Assembly: GCF_004376175.1 (NCBI RefSeq)
Contig: NZ_SNUY01000046.1
Coordinates: 1,344 to 33,343 of the forward strand
Direction: 5' to 3'
Source of the DNA: Halalkalibacterium halodurans
GTDB lineage: Bacteria > Bacillota > Bacilli > Bacillales > Bacillaceae_D
Length of the DNA stretch: 32,000 nt
Shown: positions 4,513-14,791 of the stretch, in pieces
Layout: each line of letters begins with the position of its first letter
Position numbering within the stretch: the stretch's first letter is position 1
Position numbers and translations under genes: made by a program
The notes under the pieces: generated by a model
Seen by the model: the letters and a program-made list of their open reading frames with translations, nothing else
Database searches by the model: none
Told to the model about the DNA's origin: nothing

Positions 4513-4572
4513 GACAACTCGTTTAATCTTTCACAAAGAAAAGAGGCTGTCTATATAAGTTGAATTTATCTT

Positions 4573-5139
4573 TTACAATCGAATGCACAATCGATCAATA
4601 ACTTTTCTAGGTGAGTCATTTAACTCACGAATAAAAGCTTGCACATTTCTTCGAATCTCTTTAACAGAGGAATAAAAAAGGTTATTAATTACGTCTGATT
4701 TGAGCCATTTCCATAACCCTTCAATGAGATTTAACTCAGGGCTGTAAGGTGGTAAAAAAACCAATTCTAAACGATGTTGGTGGTTACGCAAAAAAGGTTC
4801 AATCAGCTTCGCATGATGAATACGGGCATTATCTAACACCATGACAATCTTACCGGTCGGATAGTGTTTCAATACCTTTTGAAGAAAACGAAGAAACGCT
4901 TCGGCATCGTATCGTTCTTCTTCTACACAAAGCACATCTCCCGTTTCATAATTAAGTGTACCGATGAGTTTGACACCCTGGTGCTTTCCATAAGTCGGAA
5001 TGATTCGTTGCTTGCCTTTTAAAAACCATGTGTATTGAAGAGCTTGGTAATCCCGAATCATCGACTCATCTTGAAAGAGAAGATGGTCAATCTCCTCATT
5101 TAAGAGTTTTTTTATAGGCAGGGAACGTCTCTTCCACAA
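4573..5139 (-). CDS. IS630-family transposase, DDE catalytic part (orfB)
   Basis: 188 aa. DDE_3-type motifs are visible: LFQDESMI, VMVLDNARIHHA and PPYSPELNLIEGLWKWLK. It has only a TTG start in the track, so it is probably expressed as a fusion with orfA. Confidence 0.85.
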   Translation of the reverse strand: MWKRRSLPIKKLLNEEIDHLLFQDESMIRDYQALQYTWFLKGKQRIIPTYGKHQGVKLIGTLNYETGDVLCVEEERYDAEAFLRFLQKVLKHYPTGKIVMVLDNARIHHAKLIEPFLRNHQHRLELVFLPPYSPELNLIEGLWKWLKSDVINNLFYSSVKEIRRNVQAFIRELNDSPRKVIDRLCIRL

Positions 5140-5617
5140 ACTCTTTTTGTTTCAACGGGTCAGCTTTTGCCAGCGTATAAGTCGGTTTGGTATAACTAAG
5201 GCCTAAATCGTGTAAAAGTCGAGAGACACCACGAAGAGTATACGGTTGGTTCCATTTTTTCTCGATAAATGAAGCAATGATCTTTAACGTCCAATTATAC
5301 TTAGCTGGGAAGCCAACATCTACGGGAAGTTTGGTCGCAATCACTTGAGCCAATTCCTGTTCTTGTTCGGGTGTTAATTTGCGTGGCGCTCCAGGTGATT
5401 GTCCCATGGTTAAGCCATCTAGTCCCTTTTCTTCGTAGGCATTCACATAGTTATAGATAGTTTTTTCGGAACGCCCAATCATGGTTGTGATTTCTTTTTT
5501 AGAATAGCCTTGTAAATAAAAGTAAATCGCTTGATAACGTTCATACATTCGTTTATCTTTGGTCGTTTTCATCGCTGTAAGCAAGGTTTCGATTTCATGT
5601 TGACGTGAATGGGTCAT
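5096..5617 (-). CDS. IS630-family transposase, N-terminal HTH part (orfA)
   Basis: 173 aa with helix-turn-helix-like segments (YSKKEITTMIGRSEKTIYNYVNAY; YTLRGVSRLLHDLGLSY). It ends inside an A7 run where the reading frame switches to orfB. Confidence 0.85.
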   Translation of the reverse strand: MTHSRQHEIETLLTAMKTTKDKRMYERYQAIYFYLQGYSKKEITTMIGRSEKTIYNYVNAYEEKGLDGLTMGQSPGAPRKLTPEQEQELAQVIATKLPVDVGFPAKYNWTLKIIASFIEKKWNQPYTLRGVSRLLHDLGLSYTKPTYTLAKADPLKQKEFVEETFPAYKKTLK

Positions 5618-5958
5618 CTCGTTCCTCTCCGTTCATTGGTAAGTGTTACCCTTATATTTCAACAGAGAGTAATTGTAATCCTTTAATTCAACTTATATAG
5701 AAAGCGAGCTCCAACAAATTTCTTCACTTCATGACCCCCATCCCCTATATGTAATTTTCATCTAGTCTGACTAAAGTGACAATGAATCGATCGTAAACTT
5801 CCCTGAAAATAAACCTCCCCTCGTTTGCTATATCCTATTCTAACTTAGTTGAATTACGATTCCAAGGTGAATGAACGATGAAACGATAAATATTAAATAA
5901 AATTGTTGGAAAACTTTTCGACTTTCGGGAAAATGACCCGTATTAATTATCTATAGAA

Positions 5959-5993: not shown

Positions 5994-6006
5994 CTCGTTA
6001 TGATTT

Positions 6007-6195
6007 TTATGCTGACCGTCTCACAACCCCAGTCAACCGAAATGCTTGTTTATATTCCCTCTCTCTTTCTTTTTCCACATCGATCCGCTTCTCTAAATCC
6101 TGACTGTATTCAGCATAGCTCATACCATGAGATTGGTGCATCGCCTTCTCCATCTCAGTTGTTACATTGAGCTTAGATAAATGGATAGAAATCAT
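6007..6195 (-). CDS. Hypothetical small protein (62 aa)
   Basis: The ORF is followed by a terminator. A GAAGGAAGG purine tract abuts the ATG, which is a tight spacing. I recognise no family. Confidence 0.35.
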   Translation of the reverse strand: MISIHLSKLNVTTEMEKAMHQSHGMSYAEYSQDLEKRIDVEKEREREYKQAFRLTGVVRRSA

Positions 6196-6344
6196 CCTTC
6201 CTTCGTTTTCGTTTCACGAATAGCGTAACATACAAAACGAAGGGAACCAATGCTAGTCACCGAGAGTCTCACGCGATTCCTTCTAATCATAAGGGGCTAC
6301 GCAATGTCAGATGATTTACGCTTACAATTACGCGATCCGACCCA

Positions 6345-6788
6345 TTAATGCTTCATATTTTGGTTTTGACCTTGCTTTTGGTTTTGACCGTTTTGACTGT
6401 CTTGTTGATCTTGTTGACCTTGTTCTCCATTATTTTGTCCGAACTCATTCATGGCTTCTTGAACGAGCGTGACGGCCTGGCTCATGGCGGCCCCTCCACC
6501 AAAAGCAGCAGTCACTCCAATCGCTTCCAGAATCTCTTCTTCTGAGCAATCTTGGTCCATGCATCCTTTTGTATGATAAATGATGCAATATTCATCTTGG
6601 GCAAAAACGCTAACACCTAGGGCGATCAACTGTTTCTGTTTTTGCGAAAGCTCCCCTTTTGCGAAGCAAGCTTCAGTAAACGCATTGTACTTTTCTGCAA
6701 TCTCCGGCATCTTCTGTTGAAAGGTGCCAAGCCCTTCTTTATAATCCATTAGTGCCATTTCCATCGGGTTCATTTGTTGTTGATCCAT
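6345..6788 (-). CDS. Carboxymuconolactone decarboxylase (AhpD-like) family protein with a Q/N-rich C-terminal tail
   Basis: CMD-family core ([29 protein letters not shown]). Start set at the ATG at 6786-6788 ([11 protein letters not shown]), which has AAAGGAGGT six nt upstream. The position corresponds to B. subtilis yurZ. Confidence 0.8.
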
Positions 6789-6933
6789 CGTACAACCTCC
6801 TTTGCTTTTCAACGTCTTTAGTATGAGATCGAACTACATAATTCATTCGAATAATGATTCAAAAGCATCCTTGCAAAACAAGAAAAAAACCTTTATCGTG
6901 AAAAAAGGTGAAAGAAATGATGGGAACAGCATA

Positions 6934-6970
6934 GGAAAAGACGACCGAAATGGGCGTTCGACCGTCTTTT
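6934..6970 (-). terminator. Strand-specific rho-independent terminator after the AgrD-like gene
   Basis: The minus-strand RNA reads AAAAGACGGUCGAA-cgcccau-UUCGGUCGUCUUUUCC. This gives a 10-bp stem including two G-U pairs, which would be A-C mismatches on the plus strand, followed by a U-tract. Confidence 0.6.
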
Positions 6971-6977
6971 CTTTACA

Positions 6978-7100
6978 TTATTTTTGTTTCTTTAAGCTAT
7001 TAGGAATCTTTGGCGCATATATGAGTGGGCTAGACGCATTGACAAACGCTTTTGAGATTCCAAGAGTCGCTTTTGAAATGACTTTAGCTGTTCTCTTCAT
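6978..7100 (-). CDS. agrD: AgrD-like autoinducing-peptide precursor (40 aa), not in the ORF track
   Basis: The ATG at 7098-7100 has GGAGGTG (7107-7113) six nt upstream. Translation: MKRTAKVISKATLGISKAFVNASSPLIYAPKIPNSLKKQK. It has a basic amphipathic N-terminal leader, a central Ser-Ser-Pro-Leu-Ile-Tyr stretch, then a PKIP-containing tail. It is on the same strand as agrB, downstream of it, and followed by its own terminator. Confidence 0.6.
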   Translation of the reverse strand: MKRTAKVISKATLGISKAFVNASSPLIYAPKIPNSLKKQK

Positions 7101-7199
7101 TCGTTTCACCTCCCTCTATAAATTAAGATTTTCTTCAAAATGCTTTAAATATCTTAGAATTTCATTGCCTTTTGTTATCCTCTGATTAGATGAAACTTG

Positions 7200-8865
7200 C
7201 ATTTCATGCATTTGTTGGAAATATGAATGCCATCCTGGTAGAGATCATGCTTTCTCGCTTTAAAAATATGATCGCACCAGTGGATCTCCACATTTCTCTG
7301 GGGGTTACCCTCCCATTTCTCTCAGGGTCTTTGCCCGCACATTCCTTCGTCCAACCTAACCAGAGGTGGAGGCCTGTAAAAGCTCCTTTGCAGGGTCTAT
7401 GCCCGAATGGTGAAATTAATCAACAGGCTTCTCCGTGCTTCGCTTTTCAAGGATCTGCACACCTAGATATTTAAAGATATTTGTGTTTCTTCAACATGAC
7501 TAAGCAGCATTCTGTATTTGTTGCAAGCGGATGTGTCCGAGACATTTTTCTCCATTGTAAGACACACGCTTGTGTCCTAAGCTAAATAACACGCGAATCA
7601 ACTTACAGCACAACGCGATCATGGATTGTTGTTTTTTCAACGGATTCTCGGAGCGTGTCGTTAAGTACTCATGCATTTGCTTGAACTCCCGATTCTTCGC
7701 CACCATGGGGCGTATCGCTGCATACAACAGGGATCTCAGTTTGGGGCGTCCCCGCTTGGTAATGCGGGTTTGACCTCTGAACTTGCCTGAGGTATTTTCT
7801 CGCAGATTGAATCCTGCCAGTTTTTGAACCTGTCGTGGGTGCGTGTAGTTGGACAGATCGCCAACCTCAGCCAGGAAGCCAGCCACTGTCACTAGTCCCA
7901 CGCCTGGAATACTCATCATGTAGGGCACAGCTGGAATCTGCTCTAGTAATGCTTCTACATCTTGCATGAGCTGTTCCATTTGTCCACACAAACACTGGTA
8001 TTGTTCCATCAAGCTTTGGAGTTCTTGCCTAGCCATTGACAGACCTTCCGTAAGACCAACAGAACGCTTGGCGGCCGCCACAAGCGCATTGGCTCGCTTG
8101 ATCCCTATGGCTCGTTTCACTTCTTGCTTCCAGTGTCTTAGGATCTTTTCCGCACCCAGATTGATGATTTCTTGCGGGAGAGGAAACGCCTCTAGCGTCA
8201 TCAGTGCAGCCTTTCCTTCCCAAATCTTAAACACCTCATGAAATTCAGGGAAAAAGCGATCCAGCCAGTTGAGAATACGCCCCCGAACGCGTTGTAAGTC
8301 TTCTTGTAGACGGTCTCGCAGGTTCATCCCATTACGTAATTCAGCATATATGCCAGTGGGGACTTGGGGTTCAGAGTACCGTCCGTCTTTGACCAATTGA
8401 GCGATGACTCGGGCATCCTTTACATCATTTTTGGTGGGCGAATTGTCATCTAATTCCTTGCTCTTCTTCACATGCATCGGATTGACGACAACATACTTAA
8501 TCCCTTCATGGCGCAGAAACTGGGCAAATGCCATCCAGTAATGCCCTGTGGGCTCAAAACCTACAATGACATCCGGTTTGGCATGTTCTCGCATGAGGCT
8601 CTTCATCCACAAACGAAATCGTTGAAATCCGGCTCTGCTGTTTTCAATGTTCATTGGCTTGCCAAATTCAATTCCTCTGGCATCTTGAGCTCTAGCCACA
8701 TGGTTCTCCTTGGCGATATCCACGCCAATAACGAGTGTTGATTCGGTGATTTGCTTGATTTTGTGATTTTGGTTATACTTCATCTTGAGTCCTCCTTCGT
8801 ACTAATTAAGGATCAGTAGCTACTGATACCTCGTATCGTACAGGAGGGCTCTTTCTGTTTCAAAC
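7200..8865 (-). mobile_element. IS110-family insertion sequence (boundaries approximate)
   Basis: A single DEDD-type transposase gene with at most 96 nt of 5' flank before the agrB stop, and about 300 nt of non-coding 3' flank. I found no terminal inverted repeats, which is usual for this family, so the ends are only estimated. Confidence 0.7.
7500..8783 (-). CDS. IS110-family (DEDD) transposase/recombinase
   Basis: 427 aa. N-terminal RuvC-like motifs: VIGVDIAKENH, FEPTGHYW, VVVNPMHVKK and KNDVKDARVIAQL. C-terminal Transposase_20-type motifs: IPGVGLVTVAGFLAEVGD and RITKRGRPKLRSLLY. AAGGAGG lies seven nt upstream. Confidence 0.93.
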   Translation of the reverse strand: MKYNQNHKIKQITESTLVIGVDIAKENHVARAQDARGIEFGKPMNIENSRAGFQRFRLWMKSLMREHAKPDVIVGFEPTGHYWMAFAQFLRHEGIKYVVVNPMHVKKSKELDDNSPTKNDVKDARVIAQLVKDGRYSEPQVPTGIYAELRNGMNLRDRLQEDLQRVRGRILNWLDRFFPEFHEVFKIWEGKAALMTLEAFPLPQEIINLGAEKILRHWKQEVKRAIGIKRANALVAAAKRSVGLTEGLSMARQELQSLMEQYQCLCGQMEQLMQDVEALLEQIPAVPYMMSIPGVGLVTVAGFLAEVGDLSNYTHPRQVQKLAGFNLRENTSGKFRGQTRITKRGRPKLRSLLYAAIRPMVAKNREFKQMHEYLTTRSENPLKKQQSMIALCCKLIRVLFSLGHKRVSYNGEKCLGHIRLQQIQNAA

Positions 8866-8879
8866 CTCAAATTCTTTCA

Positions 8880-9458
8880 TTACAGGAATGCTCCTTTCAA
8901 GATGAACCGATTGAGCTGCCTCGTGACCTTTAGGCCAATAGGCGTAAGGAGCACCCCTTGTAATAGAACCCCGAGAACGAGGCCTTGAGCCGACATAAAC
9001 ATTGCAAGAATGATAAAAAGAACGATGAGGATGTAAGCTATCCGTTTCTTCCGCCGCTCCCAATGCTCTGTATGTACTACTTGATGAGCCTCATAGTATG
9101 GAGCGTATTTCCAAATCAACAGTCCCCCGCTAATTCCATAAAGAATCCAAGCATAGTTGTTTGCAAACGGAACCCAGAAAATTGCCGTGATGAACAGAAC
9201 GGACAGCAAAGTACAGCCAATAGAATGATCAAGGTGAGCACCTCCCGTCAACACCCTCATGAACGTGAAGGATAGTGCGATTTGGAGAAACAGCCAAATC
9301 TCTCCGTGGAGAAGGCCAACCGCTATGACGAGCAATAAAGTAAAGAGATAGTGGAGAATGATCGTGAATCCAAACGTTAGAACCTCAACCGATTCTGTTT
9401 CTTCTGCATTCAATGCTTTCACTTGATGTGCCAACGTTAAAGCAAGACGTTCAAGCAT
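8880..9458 (-). CDS. agrB: AgrB-family accessory gene regulator protein (AgrD-processing membrane peptidase)
   Basis: Polytopic membrane protein with the motif RVLTGGAHLDHSIGC. The His and Cys are 7 residues apart, as for the catalytic H77/C84 of S. aureus AgrB. Start set at the ATG at 9456-9458, preceded by a G7 tract. The upstream gene stops 11 nt before it. Confidence 0.85.
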   Translation of the reverse strand: MLERLALTLAHQVKALNAEETESVEVLTFGFTIILHYLFTLLLVIAVGLLHGEIWLFLQIALSFTFMRVLTGGAHLDHSIGCTLLSVLFITAIFWVPFANNYAWILYGISGGLLIWKYAPYYEAHQVVHTEHWERRKKRIAYILIVLFIILAMFMSAQGLVLGVLLQGVLLTPIGLKVTRQLNRFILKGAFL

Positions 9459-9469
9459 CAAACCCCCCC

Positions 9470-10744
9470 CTATTTTCTTATAAAGCGGATGCTACATTCT
9501 AGCGGGCGAATTTGTGAATCAACTTTCGCGTTATTTTGCTGAAAGTACATAAGATCATCGACAATCTTAAGTGTTGTCACATCTTGCTCTGAAAGCTCTA
9601 GGTTGCTCGATATGCGATACTCTAACGTACTATCTGTCATGTTAATCTGCAGCCTGACAAACAAATCGGACATACCTGTTCGGTACAATGCAACGAACAC
9701 CTCGTCCAATATCCGACTTAAATAACGAATTTGCCACAAAGACGTTGGGCGAACGTGCTCAAGAGTCGCTGACACTTTAAACTCGACACCTAATAACCGT
9801 GATAGCTTTTTCTTATTGATGAGAAAGGCATACATCACTTCATCTTCAGATTTGAACAAATGATAGCTCTCATCTTTCACACTAAAACTAGGTAGTTTTT
9901 TTATCGCGACTTTCTTTTCTACATACTCACGAATTAGTGGCGCCGACTCTTTTTCACAAAGCTTTAAAATCGCATTGGAATGGATGCTGTATTCATTTTG
10001 AATCGTTTCGACAATACTTGATAGTTGCTGCTCTTGATCTAGATAAAATTTCTTTGCCTCCATCATCCGCTTCGCTTGAAAGATGGAGTGAAGAACGTAG
10101 TACGTAGATAATACAAGGAAAAGCAATACGATAATGAAGAGAACAAATAAATGTTTGTTTAACACTGCACTTGTCGTCATCACATAAGATGCGAAGCAAA
10201 TGAACAGAAACATCATAAACGCACTTACAAATATAACGCGTTTTTCCTTCGTCGAAAGCAAATCTCCTTCAATATGTCCGCGAAATTCGTTAAGCTGATA
10301 GCTCCCTCGGTAAATGCCGTATGAGGCTGTTGTTACAAGGAGGAACGTACCGCTTTGAATCAGCAACGTTACATCGGTATAAGACAGCAAGACGTCCCAA
10401 TAACTGTAAGAGGACATGGCGGTAATCGCTTCGACAATGATTAATTGGGTAAAGATATAAAATCCATATCCACTGCTCGTCACGACTAACGACTCTAATG
10501 AATTAAATCGAAATAACCATCTGACAAGGATAAACAAAACGGTCATTTGAATGAAAATCACAATCGGCAAGTGCAAATGGGGGACCATTCGTAACACAAA
10601 AATCGATAAAAGACTCAATAACGTACCAATCGCTACAATTGATAAACGATAGCGGCGGAACGTATAACCAAATAATAGAACGGGAAACGATAAGAGGGCG
10701 CTCCATTCCAAAATGGATATTAGGAAGGTTAAAATGTGATACAT
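9470..10744 (-). CDS. AgrC-like 7-TM sensor protein with a degenerate (apparently non-catalytic) kinase module
   Basis: 424 aa: about 7 predicted TM helices in residues 1-220, then a roughly 200-aa cytoplasmic part. The HPK10-like layout is recognisable (IQNEYSIHSNAILKL; LINKKKLSRLLGVEFKVSA; LSRILDEVFVAL). However, DE replaces the N-box DN, and the last roughly 65 residues contain no Gly, so there is no G1 or G2 box. GGGGAG SD lies 8 nt upstream. Confidence 0.7.
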   Translation of the reverse strand: MYHILTFLISILEWSALLSFPVLLFGYTFRRYRLSIVAIGTLLSLLSIFVLRMVPHLHLPIVIFIQMTVLFILVRWLFRFNSLESLVVTSSGYGFYIFTQLIIVEAITAMSSYSYWDVLLSYTDVTLLIQSGTFLLVTTASYGIYRGSYQLNEFRGHIEGDLLSTKEKRVIFVSAFMMFLFICFASYVMTTSAVLNKHLFVLFIIVLLFLVLSTYYVLHSIFQAKRMMEAKKFYLDQEQQLSSIVETIQNEYSIHSNAILKLCEKESAPLIREYVEKKVAIKKLPSFSVKDESYHLFKSEDEVMYAFLINKKKLSRLLGVEFKVSATLEHVRPTSLWQIRYLSRILDEVFVALYRTGMSDLFVRLQINMTDSTLEYRISSNLELSEQDVTTLKIVDDLMYFQQNNAKVDSQIRPLECSIRFIRK

Positions 10745-10774: not shown

Positions 10775-11572
10775 TTAAATCGTCATGTTTTTCCCTTTTG
10801 GAATGGTTAATGTGACAACCACACCTCTTTTTGGATGGTTCTTGATCTCAAGCGTCCCCTCCATGGCTTCTATAATGGTTTTGCATATGGGCAATCCTAA
10901 GCCTGTTCCCTCATCCTTCGTCGTAAAAAAAGGATAAAAAATGTTCTCTAATTGATCCTCAGCAATTCCTGGTCCATCGTCATGAATGACAAGAATCACT
11001 GCGTCCTGATCATTGGAAAGCTTGATGGAAATGGTTCCTTCTTCCTCTATTGCTTCAACAGCGTTTTTAATAAGATTAATAAGTACTTGCTCAAAGCGGG
11101 TTACATTACCTGAAATATATAAGCCTTCTGCCAAATCTGTGCGAAACCGGATCTCTTTCTTGTCTTGCTTCATTTTCTGAATGAGAATAACCTTTTCAAT
11201 GCTACGCTTGACATCAATCAATGACAAGTTTTCCTCGTCAAGATGGGCTTTGGCGAACGTTAATAACTCTTGAATGAGCGCCTCCATACGAATAGCTTCA
11301 TCTTTAATGATAGACGTATATTGGGCAATCGTGGGATCAGAGCGAATCGTTTCATTTTGCTCAAGGTATTGAGTAAAACCGATAATCGAGGTTAGAGGAT
11401 TTCTTATTTCATGAGCAAAAAATGCCGCCATTTTTCCGATAGCTGCATGATAATTCTCATTTCCATCCTTATAATCATTTCCGATCTCACTTAGACGCTC
11501 TTGATATGATTTCTTTTTTTCTATTGGCTTTGTCTTTCTTTGCAGCCAGCTTTTAAAAAATGGACGGTTCAT
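10775..11572 (-). CDS. Soluble sensor-less histidine kinase (HisKA + HATPase_c)
   Basis: H-box FFAHEIRNPLTSIIGF, N-box LINLIKNAVEA, G1 HDDGPGI, F-box FYPFFTTK and G2 GTGLGLPICK are all present. There is no TM or PAS segment. Start placed at the ATG at 11570-11572 (MNRPFFKSW) with an upstream GGGAG. The track ORF extends to a TTG at 11659 without an SD. Confidence 0.85.
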   Translation of the reverse strand: MNRPFFKSWLQRKTKPIEKKKSYQERLSEIGNDYKDGNENYHAAIGKMAAFFAHEIRNPLTSIIGFTQYLEQNETIRSDPTIAQYTSIIKDEAIRMEALIQELLTFAKAHLDEENLSLIDVKRSIEKVILIQKMKQDKKEIRFRTDLAEGLYISGNVTRFEQVLINLIKNAVEAIEEEGTISIKLSNDQDAVILVIHDDGPGIAEDQLENIFYPFFTTKDEGTGLGLPICKTIIEAMEGTLEIKNHPKRGVVVTLTIPKGKNMTI

Positions 11573-11882
11573 GATGATAACACTCCCACTAATCGCACGA
11601 AAAAATTCTGCCCTTTCGATATTGTTACAATTTCGACGCTTTATTGTAAGTTCCTTCAAATATTTTCATTCTTTTCTGACATAATTTTTCCCAGTTTTCG
11701 AATATTCCTGAATCGAACTGAGCGCCTCCCATAACGTAAGAAAAACCCCTGCTTGAGAAGTAACAGAGATAAATAAATCACGGTGTACTACAAAAAGGTG
11801 ATGACTTATTACTGCCTCTCGGAAAGTTGCCTCGCTTTTGAGGCCATGCACCAGACAGCTACGCCTCCCTTTCTTCATTTAC

Positions 11883-14627: not shown

Positions 14628-14791
14628 CAAAAAAACCTTTCCGCCATGAGCAGAAAGGAATGTTTTACGTCTTCCCTTCTCTCATCTCTCAAAGCATCGC
14701 TTTGCAGGAATTAGCACCTTTTCCAAGCGATTTGCTGCTTGGCGGTTGCTGGGCTTCATCGGGCCAGTCCCTCCACCTCTCATGATAAGAG
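14628..14791 (-). promoter_or_regulatory. SAM-I (S-box) riboswitch with intrinsic terminator
   Basis: The minus strand reads CTCTTATCATGAGAGGTGGAGGGACTGGCCCGATGAAGCCCAGCAACCG...AAAAGGTGCTAATTCCTGCAAAG...GAGAGATGAGAG. P1 is CTCTTATC/GATGAGAG. The hairpin CCTTTC-N10-GGAAAGG plus T7 follows at 14628-14657. Confidence 0.9.

Follow-up and report, generated by a model that had tools for sequence, protein, structure and literature searches.

An AgrD-type peptide precursor with serine in place of the ring cysteine is separated from agrB by an IS110-family element in Halalkalibacterium halodurans

The 40-codon open reading frame at 6978..7100 (minus strand) of a 32,000-nucleotide stretch of Halalkalibacterium halodurans DNA (hereafter the window) is, judged by its sequence and conservation, a real AgrD-type quorum-sensing peptide precursor that carries serine where most of its relatives have the ring cysteine. 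We consider it likely, with a probability of about 0.75, that this precursor belongs to an agr-like quorum-sensing module in which it is processed by AgrB to a serine lactone sensed by a 424-aa protein together with a HisKA kinase, and that an insertion sequence now separates agrD from its module in this strain. It should be mentioned that the peptide itself was already known, as it had been named by automatic public annotation; the gain of this work is the context and not the discovery of the reading frame.

The agrD gene and its assignment

The reading frame starts with an ATG at 7100..7098 and its stop codon ends at 6978 on the minus strand. Re-reading of the frame and translation gave the product MKRTAKVISKATLGISKAFVNASSPLIYAPKIPNSLKKQK, which is 40 aa long and contains no Cys, as had been claimed in the original prediction. 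An alternative start, GTG at 7109, would yield a protein of 43 aa. The Shine-Dalgarno sequence GGAGGTG expected 6 nt ahead of the ATG was indeed present at 7107..7113 (minus strand). Directly 3' of the stop codon we found a terminator-like hairpin followed by a U-rich run (6935..6971, minus strand), with a stem of 15 bp including two G-U pairs and a folding energy of -17.2 kcal/mol (z = -3.5) in the minus-strand RNA. The presence of a terminator-like hairpin with G-U pairs agreed with the original prediction; its claim that the structure folds in the minus-strand RNA only did not hold, since the plus-strand RNA of the same stretch folds almost equally well (-16.0 kcal/mol, z = -3.2) and has a U-tract as well. 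The hairpin is therefore not strand-specific.

The peptide is matched by the NCBIfam profile TIGR04223 ('AgrD family cyclic lactone autoinducer peptide') with E = 1.1e-6 and 28.6 bits, above the curated cut-off of 19 bits, and the match spans positions 1-38 of the 38 profile positions. The same profile recognised 15 of the 16 aligned peptides of the subfamily described below, which bears out the initial AgrD-like reading. The Pfam AgrD family PF05931, with which a search had been proposed, gave no match at E <= 10. No matches were obtained in a PDB sequence search with the peptide or in a megablast of the locus against plasmids, and a homologue search with the peptide returned only itself, the word index being too coarse for a query so short. 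An identical peptide is deposited at NCBI as WP_134229885.1 / TES52403.1 under the name 'cyclic lactone autoinducer peptide [Halalkalibacterium halodurans]', so that the description of the reading frame as unannotated is valid for the 60-aa ORF track used in the original prediction and not for the public record. The allele of strain C-125 is BH3474, which differs by S35G; no paper mentioning BH3474-BH3477 or the locus was found in the literature.

The precursor consists of an amphipathic basic leader (residues 1-22), the core S23-S24-P25-L26-I27, the residue Y28 and a C-terminal recognition tail (A29..K40). The AgrD layout proposed earlier, with an amphipathic basic leader and a proline-containing tail, was recovered throughout the subfamily. 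The hydrophobic moment of the leader is 0.51, the average for shuffled sequences being 0.24 (P = 0.014), and 9 of 10 subfamily members tested gave P < 0.05. The leader is amphipathic and basic across the subfamily, and P30, P33 and L36 of the tail are invariant. The basic character of the tail, previously pointed out as unusual for AgrD, proved to be a trait of the whole subfamily: the tail charge ranges from +2 to +4, versus -4 in S. aureus, and recognition by AgrB may differ for this reason. The peptide thus represents an uncharacterised subfamily of the known AgrD kind.

The four-gene module in Bacillaceae

To collect related loci, genomes were scanned with an alignment of relatives of the neighbouring 420-aa protein and not with the peptide, which yielded 17 loci; since the peptide itself played no part in their retrieval, they make up a sample without bias towards it. 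The hosts belong to Halalkalibacter, Salipaludibacillus, Anaerobacillus, Caldalkalibacillus, Niallia, Lederbergia, Bacillus solitudinis and others. A similar scan with a single AgrB sequence produced pattern matches, among which no relative was confirmed.

The comparison revealed a conserved four-gene module composed of a soluble HisKA kinase, a membrane protein of about 420 aa, AgrB and AgrD. In 16 of the 17 loci the 420-aa gene is preceded by the kinase gene, and agrB followed by a 40-aa ORF was found in 13 of the 17 as well as in the metagenomic locus L005. In these 14 Bacillaceae loci outside H. halodurans the peptide gene is located directly 3' of agrB and mostly overlaps it. Lack of conservation of the ORF, or a different small ORF after agrB in relatives, had been named as evidence that would speak against an AgrD; instead, the same peptide directly follows agrB both in these loci and in the eight other H. 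halodurans contigs listed.

Two loci deviate in detail. In Caldalkalibacillus mannanilyticus (L018, 7268..7821) agrB is split over two frames by a frameshift or a sequencing error, and agrD is intact. In Niallia sp. 01092 (L021, 3500..6000) the module has no upstream kinase, and flagellar genes and fabZ are found there instead.

An IS110-family element between agrB and agrD

In the ancestral allele, as seen in the empty-site H. halodurans contig L001, the 3' end of agrB (6001-6594, 197 aa) overlaps agrD (6578-6700) by 17 nt, and the same arrangement was present in all eight H. halodurans contigs listed besides the window. In the window, this junction is interrupted by an IS110-family insertion sequence of 1777 bp (7114..8890, minus strand), a feature missing from the original prediction together with the public name of the peptide and the partner genes other than agrC/agrA. 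A blastn comparison showed that L001 is 99.8% identical to the window on either side of this interval and lacks the interval itself. The insertion site lies within AAAGGAGGTG, a stretch in which agrB ends and which also serves agrD as its Shine-Dalgarno sequence, and the element is flanked by GGAG on both sides. The left-hand copy (8891..8894, minus strand) represents either the target core or a 4-bp duplication; the right-hand copy (7113..7110) forms the first four bases of the agrD Shine-Dalgarno sequence and restores it exactly. Since the element is absent from this site in all eight other contigs listed, the insertion is recent and strain-specific. Insertion of an IS into the ribosome-binding site of agrD is not described in the literature found.

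The element encodes a transposase of 427 aa (7500..8783, minus strand; PF01548, 2.3e-33; PF02371, 3.7e-22; NF033542, 5.7e-71), at least four identical copies of which are deposited under TES accessions. No terminal inverted repeats were found in a search of 7114..8890. The non-coding right end (7114..7499, minus strand, 386 nt) is structured (z = -2.95) and matched no Rfam family. The element thus resembles the RNA-guided members of the IS110 family in its DEDD transposase with a Transposase_20 domain, the lack of terminal inverted repeats, the short conserved core at both junctions and the long structured non-coding end. In contrast to these members, its bridge or seek RNA is a candidate. The right end contains CAAAGGAGCUUUU (7391..7379), resembling the left junction AAAGGAG/C, and an 18-nt stretch (7426..7409) of which 14/18 positions are complementary to the right flank at 7110..7093. 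The segment CAAAGGAGCUUUU and this stretch may be guide segments of a bridge or seek RNA, or may owe their similarity to chance.

Near-identical copies of the element were detected at two other sites (L034, 1094..2870; L035, 1094..2870). All three sites have GGAG at the right junction and either GGAG or AGAG at the left one. At two of the three, the target is a Shine-Dalgarno sequence 8-13 nt ahead of a start codon; there the transposase gene is co-directional and the Shine-Dalgarno sequence has been regenerated. The element may prefer ribosome-binding sites, as far as three sites allow one to judge.

The insertion also changed the end of agrB (8880..9461, minus strand). The encoded protein is 98% identical to P0001 and matches PF04647 with E = 4.5e-28 and 98.3 bits against a cut-off of 23; a PDB sequence search with it gave no matches. 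The native C-terminus ...LKGGETNEENS is replaced in the window by ...LKGAFL, GETNEENS giving way to AFL, which is read from the left end of the element. The motif R-x-L-T-G-G-x-H ... C is invariant in an alignment with 13 orthologues (14 sequences), and its His and Cys align with H77/C84 of S. aureus AgrB. The catalytic His/Cys pair is retained despite the changed C-terminus. The altered AgrB is probably still active, because three orthologues (L012, L017 and L020) naturally do without the lost tail; in these loci agrD does not overlap agrB.

As a result of the insertion, agrD is now 1.78 kb away from agrB and from the operon promoter, so that its expression must depend on read-through across the element. 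A sigma-70 scan revealed no more sites than in shuffled sequences and none that could drive agrD from the end of the element (7114..7300, minus strand). It is therefore conceivable that the locus is dead or silenced in this strain, agrD being uncoupled from agrB and its promoter, the C-terminus of AgrB being altered and no peptide being made. The position of the element inside the agrB/agrD overlap, the lack of a promoter-like site facing agrD and the recent origin of the insertion, missing in the eight other H. halodurans assemblies listed, all agree with this. On the other hand, the agrD Shine-Dalgarno sequence was regenerated without change, and the three orthologues with a naturally short AgrB combine it with a separate agrD. 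Neither the kinase gene nor the 424-aa gene of the window is damaged, and both are identical to their counterparts in other strains. In addition, the transposase gene is co-directional with agrD and no minus-strand terminator-like sites were found within the element, which makes read-through, and with it transcription through the element into agrD, possible. Taken together, we regard silencing as a serious possibility, although somewhat less probable than not. The strain bearing the element and its sisters free of it constitute a natural isogenic pair in which the functions controlled by the module could be studied.

Predicted processing and ring chemistry of the peptide

Alignment of 16 peptides gave the subfamily motif FVxASSPxx[H/Y/N]xP[K/N][I/V]PxSL[K/R][K/V]xK. 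Residues A5, K6, S9, T12, F19, V20, A22, S23, S24, P25, P30, P33, L36 and K40 are invariant, with K31, I32 and S35 close to it, and Cys does not occur at any position of the 16 sequences.

According to the mechanism that we propose for a functional module, the amphipathic basic leader would hold the precursor at the membrane. AgrB would cleave after I27, ahead of the conserved Y/H-x-P-K-I-P-x-S-L tail, and form an acyl-enzyme, which would then be attacked by a serine hydroxyl to give the lactone; S23 would produce the canonical five-residue ring S-S-P-L-I, with S24 as the alternative. Type I signal peptidase would finally cut between Ala and Ser of the invariant V-x-A-S and release a short ring that carries a minimal tail or none. 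The sequence V20-x-A22/S23 is invariant and resembles a signal-peptidase site, and a cut at this position would leave no exocyclic tail. The cyclic lactone is thus a predicted secreted product. The calculated [M+H]+ is 498.292 for cyclic SSPLI (isobaric with S-[SPLI]), 574.324 for cyclic SPLIY and 661.356 for S-[SPLIY], the linear forms being 18.011 Da heavier.

Two lines of evidence bear on the identity of the ring serine. The stretch A-S-S-P-L-I-Y-A-P-K-I-P aligns without gaps with A-C-F-M-F-V-Y-E-P-K-S-P of Listeria, which places S23 opposite the Cys and I27 at the end of the ring; L. monocytogenes AgrD also matches TIGR04223 without gaps (positions 3-33). The product of Listeria AgrD is the tail-less pentapeptide ring CFMFV (PMC4916163), and together with the ungapped alignment this points to cleavage after I27 and to S23 as the ring residue. 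The profile itself suggests a different register: the TIGR04223 score gains 3.2 bits with the substitution S24C and loses 3.6 bits with S24A, whereas both S23C (+1.7) and S23A (+2.6) raise it, so that the profile puts S24 in the Cys/Ser column. An extra residue inserted after Y28 likewise raises the score. A Ser-Pro pair at the start of the ring is known from GBAP, QN-S-PNIFGQWM (PMC3673130). The spacing to Y-x-P-K-x-P thus favours S23 and the profile favours S24, and S-S-P-L-I and S-P-L-I-Y, the rings named in the original prediction, are both still candidates.

A genuine relative of AgrD might also give rise to a mature signal other than a serine lactone. This could be a linear peptide or, through an O-to-N acyl shift of a tail-less lactone with a free amino group on the ring serine, a head-to-tail cyclic pentapeptide, the formation of which would be favoured at alkaline pH. 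Cleavage at the signal-peptidase-like site would leave S23 N-terminal, as such a shift demands, and a fixed S-S-P is uncommon among AIP rings, a hint of further constraints from chemistry. The names of most subfamily hosts are typical of alkaliphilic genera, from which we infer the link to pH; some others (Niallia, Lederbergia) are not known as alkaliphiles. A corresponding S-to-N acyl shift of tail-less AIPs has been reported, as cited in a recent survey (PMC12180512). At the same time, the stability of serine lactone AIPs suffices for signalling in S. pseudintermedius and E. faecalis (PMC3673130). We consider a rearranged or linear product unlikely and retain the serine lactone as the preferred structure.

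Selection on the peptide sequence

The peptides share 55-73% identity, as compared with 30-46% for their neighbours AgrB and the 420-aa protein. The numbers of variable columns at the first, second and third codon positions of the peptide gene are 23, 19 and 39, respectively, all 39 third positions being variable, and the other reading frames contain stops in all cases but one. The first serine of the core is always encoded by TCN and the second always by AGY. Each of these codons is one mutation away from Cys and yet Cys is absent, which indicates that serine is selected for. By these comparisons at least 15 Bacillaceae lineages have conserved the peptide gene as one that codes for protein, and Ala-Ser-Ser-Pro is the same in all of them. 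From the mere 40 codons and the lack of a Pfam match one might suspect a frame that is open by chance, or a small membrane-active protein with no part in signalling, but this was rejected, as far as sequence goes, on account of the conservation, higher than that of the neighbours, and the codon-position pattern dominated by third-position variation, along with the TIGR04223 match above the cut-off and the constant placement after agrB.

The receptor-like 424-aa protein and the soluble kinase

The gene upstream of agrB encodes a 424-aa membrane protein (9470..10744, minus strand; BH3476 in C-125) that has no match in Pfam or NCBIfam and no sequence match in PDB. A phmmer search found only 23 relatives among 1.84 billion representatives. 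Its AF2 model (mean pLDDT 79.7) comprises about seven transmembrane helices, the last of which runs on into a long helix, and a small alpha/beta domain. The best Foldseek matches of the model were to the cytoplasmic module of S. aureus AgrC (6e95 and 6e52, E = 7.6e-6 and 1.1e-5), followed by DesK; the AgrC CA domain 4bxi was also matched (TM 0.62). A motif check of the family showed that the N-box Asn and the G1 and G2 glycine boxes are absent, and that a candidate phosphoacceptor-position residue, His255, is present in 12 of 14 members and replaced by Arg or Lys in the other two. The model therefore suggests an AgrC-like fold, with a multi-pass sensor, a DHp helix and a GHKL-type domain, that is devoid of ATP-binding motifs. 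We propose on the basis of this fold and of gene linkage that the protein may be the peptide receptor. Its sensor domain was compared with its cytoplasmic part, since the former diverges more strongly among the specificity groups of staphylococcal agr; no clear difference of this kind was seen here (42% versus 44-56% identity).

The first gene of the module (10775..11572, minus strand) encodes a soluble histidine kinase of 265 aa with HisKA and HATPase_c domains (PF00512, 6.4e-16; PF02518, 1.6e-27), or of 294 aa if read from a TTG at 11659. It is the most conserved component of the module (49-58% identity) and is complete but sensor-less. Among proteins of solved structure, sporulation kinase B (3d36, 3e-35) is nearest to it, in a tie with ThkA and ZraS. 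A tblastn search with Spo0F and AgrA sequences detected neither a receiver nor a LytTR domain in the 32-kb window, and the same search of 35 loci revealed one unrelated receiver about 4.5 kb from the module. A search for Spo0A boxes gave 4 matches versus 6.4 expected, that is no enrichment, and none upstream of the module.

The co-conserved 424-aa protein would thus read the peptide and control the adjacent soluble HisKA kinase, which would signal to an unlinked response regulator. A receptor pseudokinase steering a partner kinase with an unlinked regulator is the most economical reading of these data; the sporulation phosphorelay is one candidate target of the kinase, and a speculative one. 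In three genomes, Halalkalibacter urbisdiaboli (L008), a Bacillaceae MAG (L011) and Bacillus sp. FJAT-50079 (L016), each with the match at 6001..~7245, the kinase and the 420-aa gene are followed by neither agrB nor agrD, and these bacteria may be listeners only.

It can be hypothesized, as a tentative extension that we regard as rather doubtful in its entirety, that the module is an undescribed agr circuit restricted to a small group of mostly alkaliphilic Bacillaceae. In such a circuit the AgrC-fold pseudokinase would sense a Ser-Ser-Pro cyclic peptide and act on the soluble HisKA kinase, which resembles sporulation kinases and has no linked regulator, with a possible output to Spo0F/Spo0A. 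Obligatory use of serine would then reflect adaptation to high pH, at which thioesters are short-lived, and the three genomes without agrBD would be eavesdroppers.

Comparison with known agr-type systems

The AgrD/AgrB pair of S. aureus (agrBDCA) shares with the locus studied here the small precursor gene right after agrB, the amphipathic leader, the short core, the proline-containing tail, the His/Cys pair of AgrB and the match to TIGR04223. The differences are Ser instead of Cys, a basic and not acidic tail and no match to PF05931, as well as the lack of a linked AgrC with a working kinase domain and of a linked AgrA/LytTR regulator.

Signals of the AgrD type with a ring closed by serine have been characterised in the Staphylococcus (pseud)intermedius AIP and in GBAP of Enterococcus faecalis, the product of FsrD (PMC3673130); in our case the serine lactone is predicted. 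Pro comes after the ring serine of GBAP, just as P25 comes after S24 here. Both systems differ from ours in their canonical receptors of the AgrC/AgrA type (FsrC/FsrA), and the ring of GBAP has 9 residues. The FsrD sequence gave no match to TIGR04223.

The closest layout of core and tail, A-[C/S]-x-x-x-x-[Y/F]-x-P/T-K-x-P, was found in AgrD of Listeria monocytogenes and LamD of Lactiplantibacillus plantarum, the products of which are tail-less five-residue rings (PMC4916163). Unlike the peptide described here, they are thiolactones and are encoded in complete agrBDCA / lamBDCA operons.

A reader other than a linked AgrC/AgrA pair has a parallel in clostridial agrBD loci without cognate agrCA. 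The signals of C. difficile Agr1 and of C. perfringens AgrBD with VirSR are reported to be read without linked AgrC/AgrA and to be tied to sporulation or toxin control (PMC8534292, PMC10602386, PMC4963840). In contrast to these loci, the operon studied here combines agrBD with a specific receptor-like gene and a kinase gene, both of them conserved.

AgrD precursors have been mined by tens of thousands with TIGR04223, and 43 AIPs were counted in one 2025 survey (PMC12180512). The chemically characterised signals of the AgrD type come from few genera, and none of them from Bacillaceae of this type. No description of the invariant Ser-Ser-Pro core, of the all-basic tail or of the conserved partnership of pseudokinase and kinase was found in the literature. 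With the Ser-Ser-Pro core fixed and about two ring positions variable, the subfamily is a clean system in which to test how AgrB makes serine lactones. A split receptor made of a pseudokinase and a soluble kinase would, if true, widen the known ways in which agr signals are read.

Neighbouring features in the window

The gene order along the minus strand is metNPQ, the HisKA kinase gene, the 424-aa gene, agrB, the IS110 transposase gene, agrD, a CMD-family gene, an IS642 copy and sufCDSUB. The metNPQ transporter operon is preceded by a SAM (S-box) riboswitch (14679..14791, minus strand; 86 bits). Downstream of agrD, the CMD/AhpD-family gene (6345..6812, minus strand) encodes a low-complexity C-terminal tail rich in Gln, Asn and Gly. 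A second insertion relative to the sister strain is a copy of IS642, of the IS630 family, between yuzK and sufC (~4554..5697, minus strand). Its transposase is split into ORFs of 173 aa and 188 aa, the full-length relatives having 347 aa.
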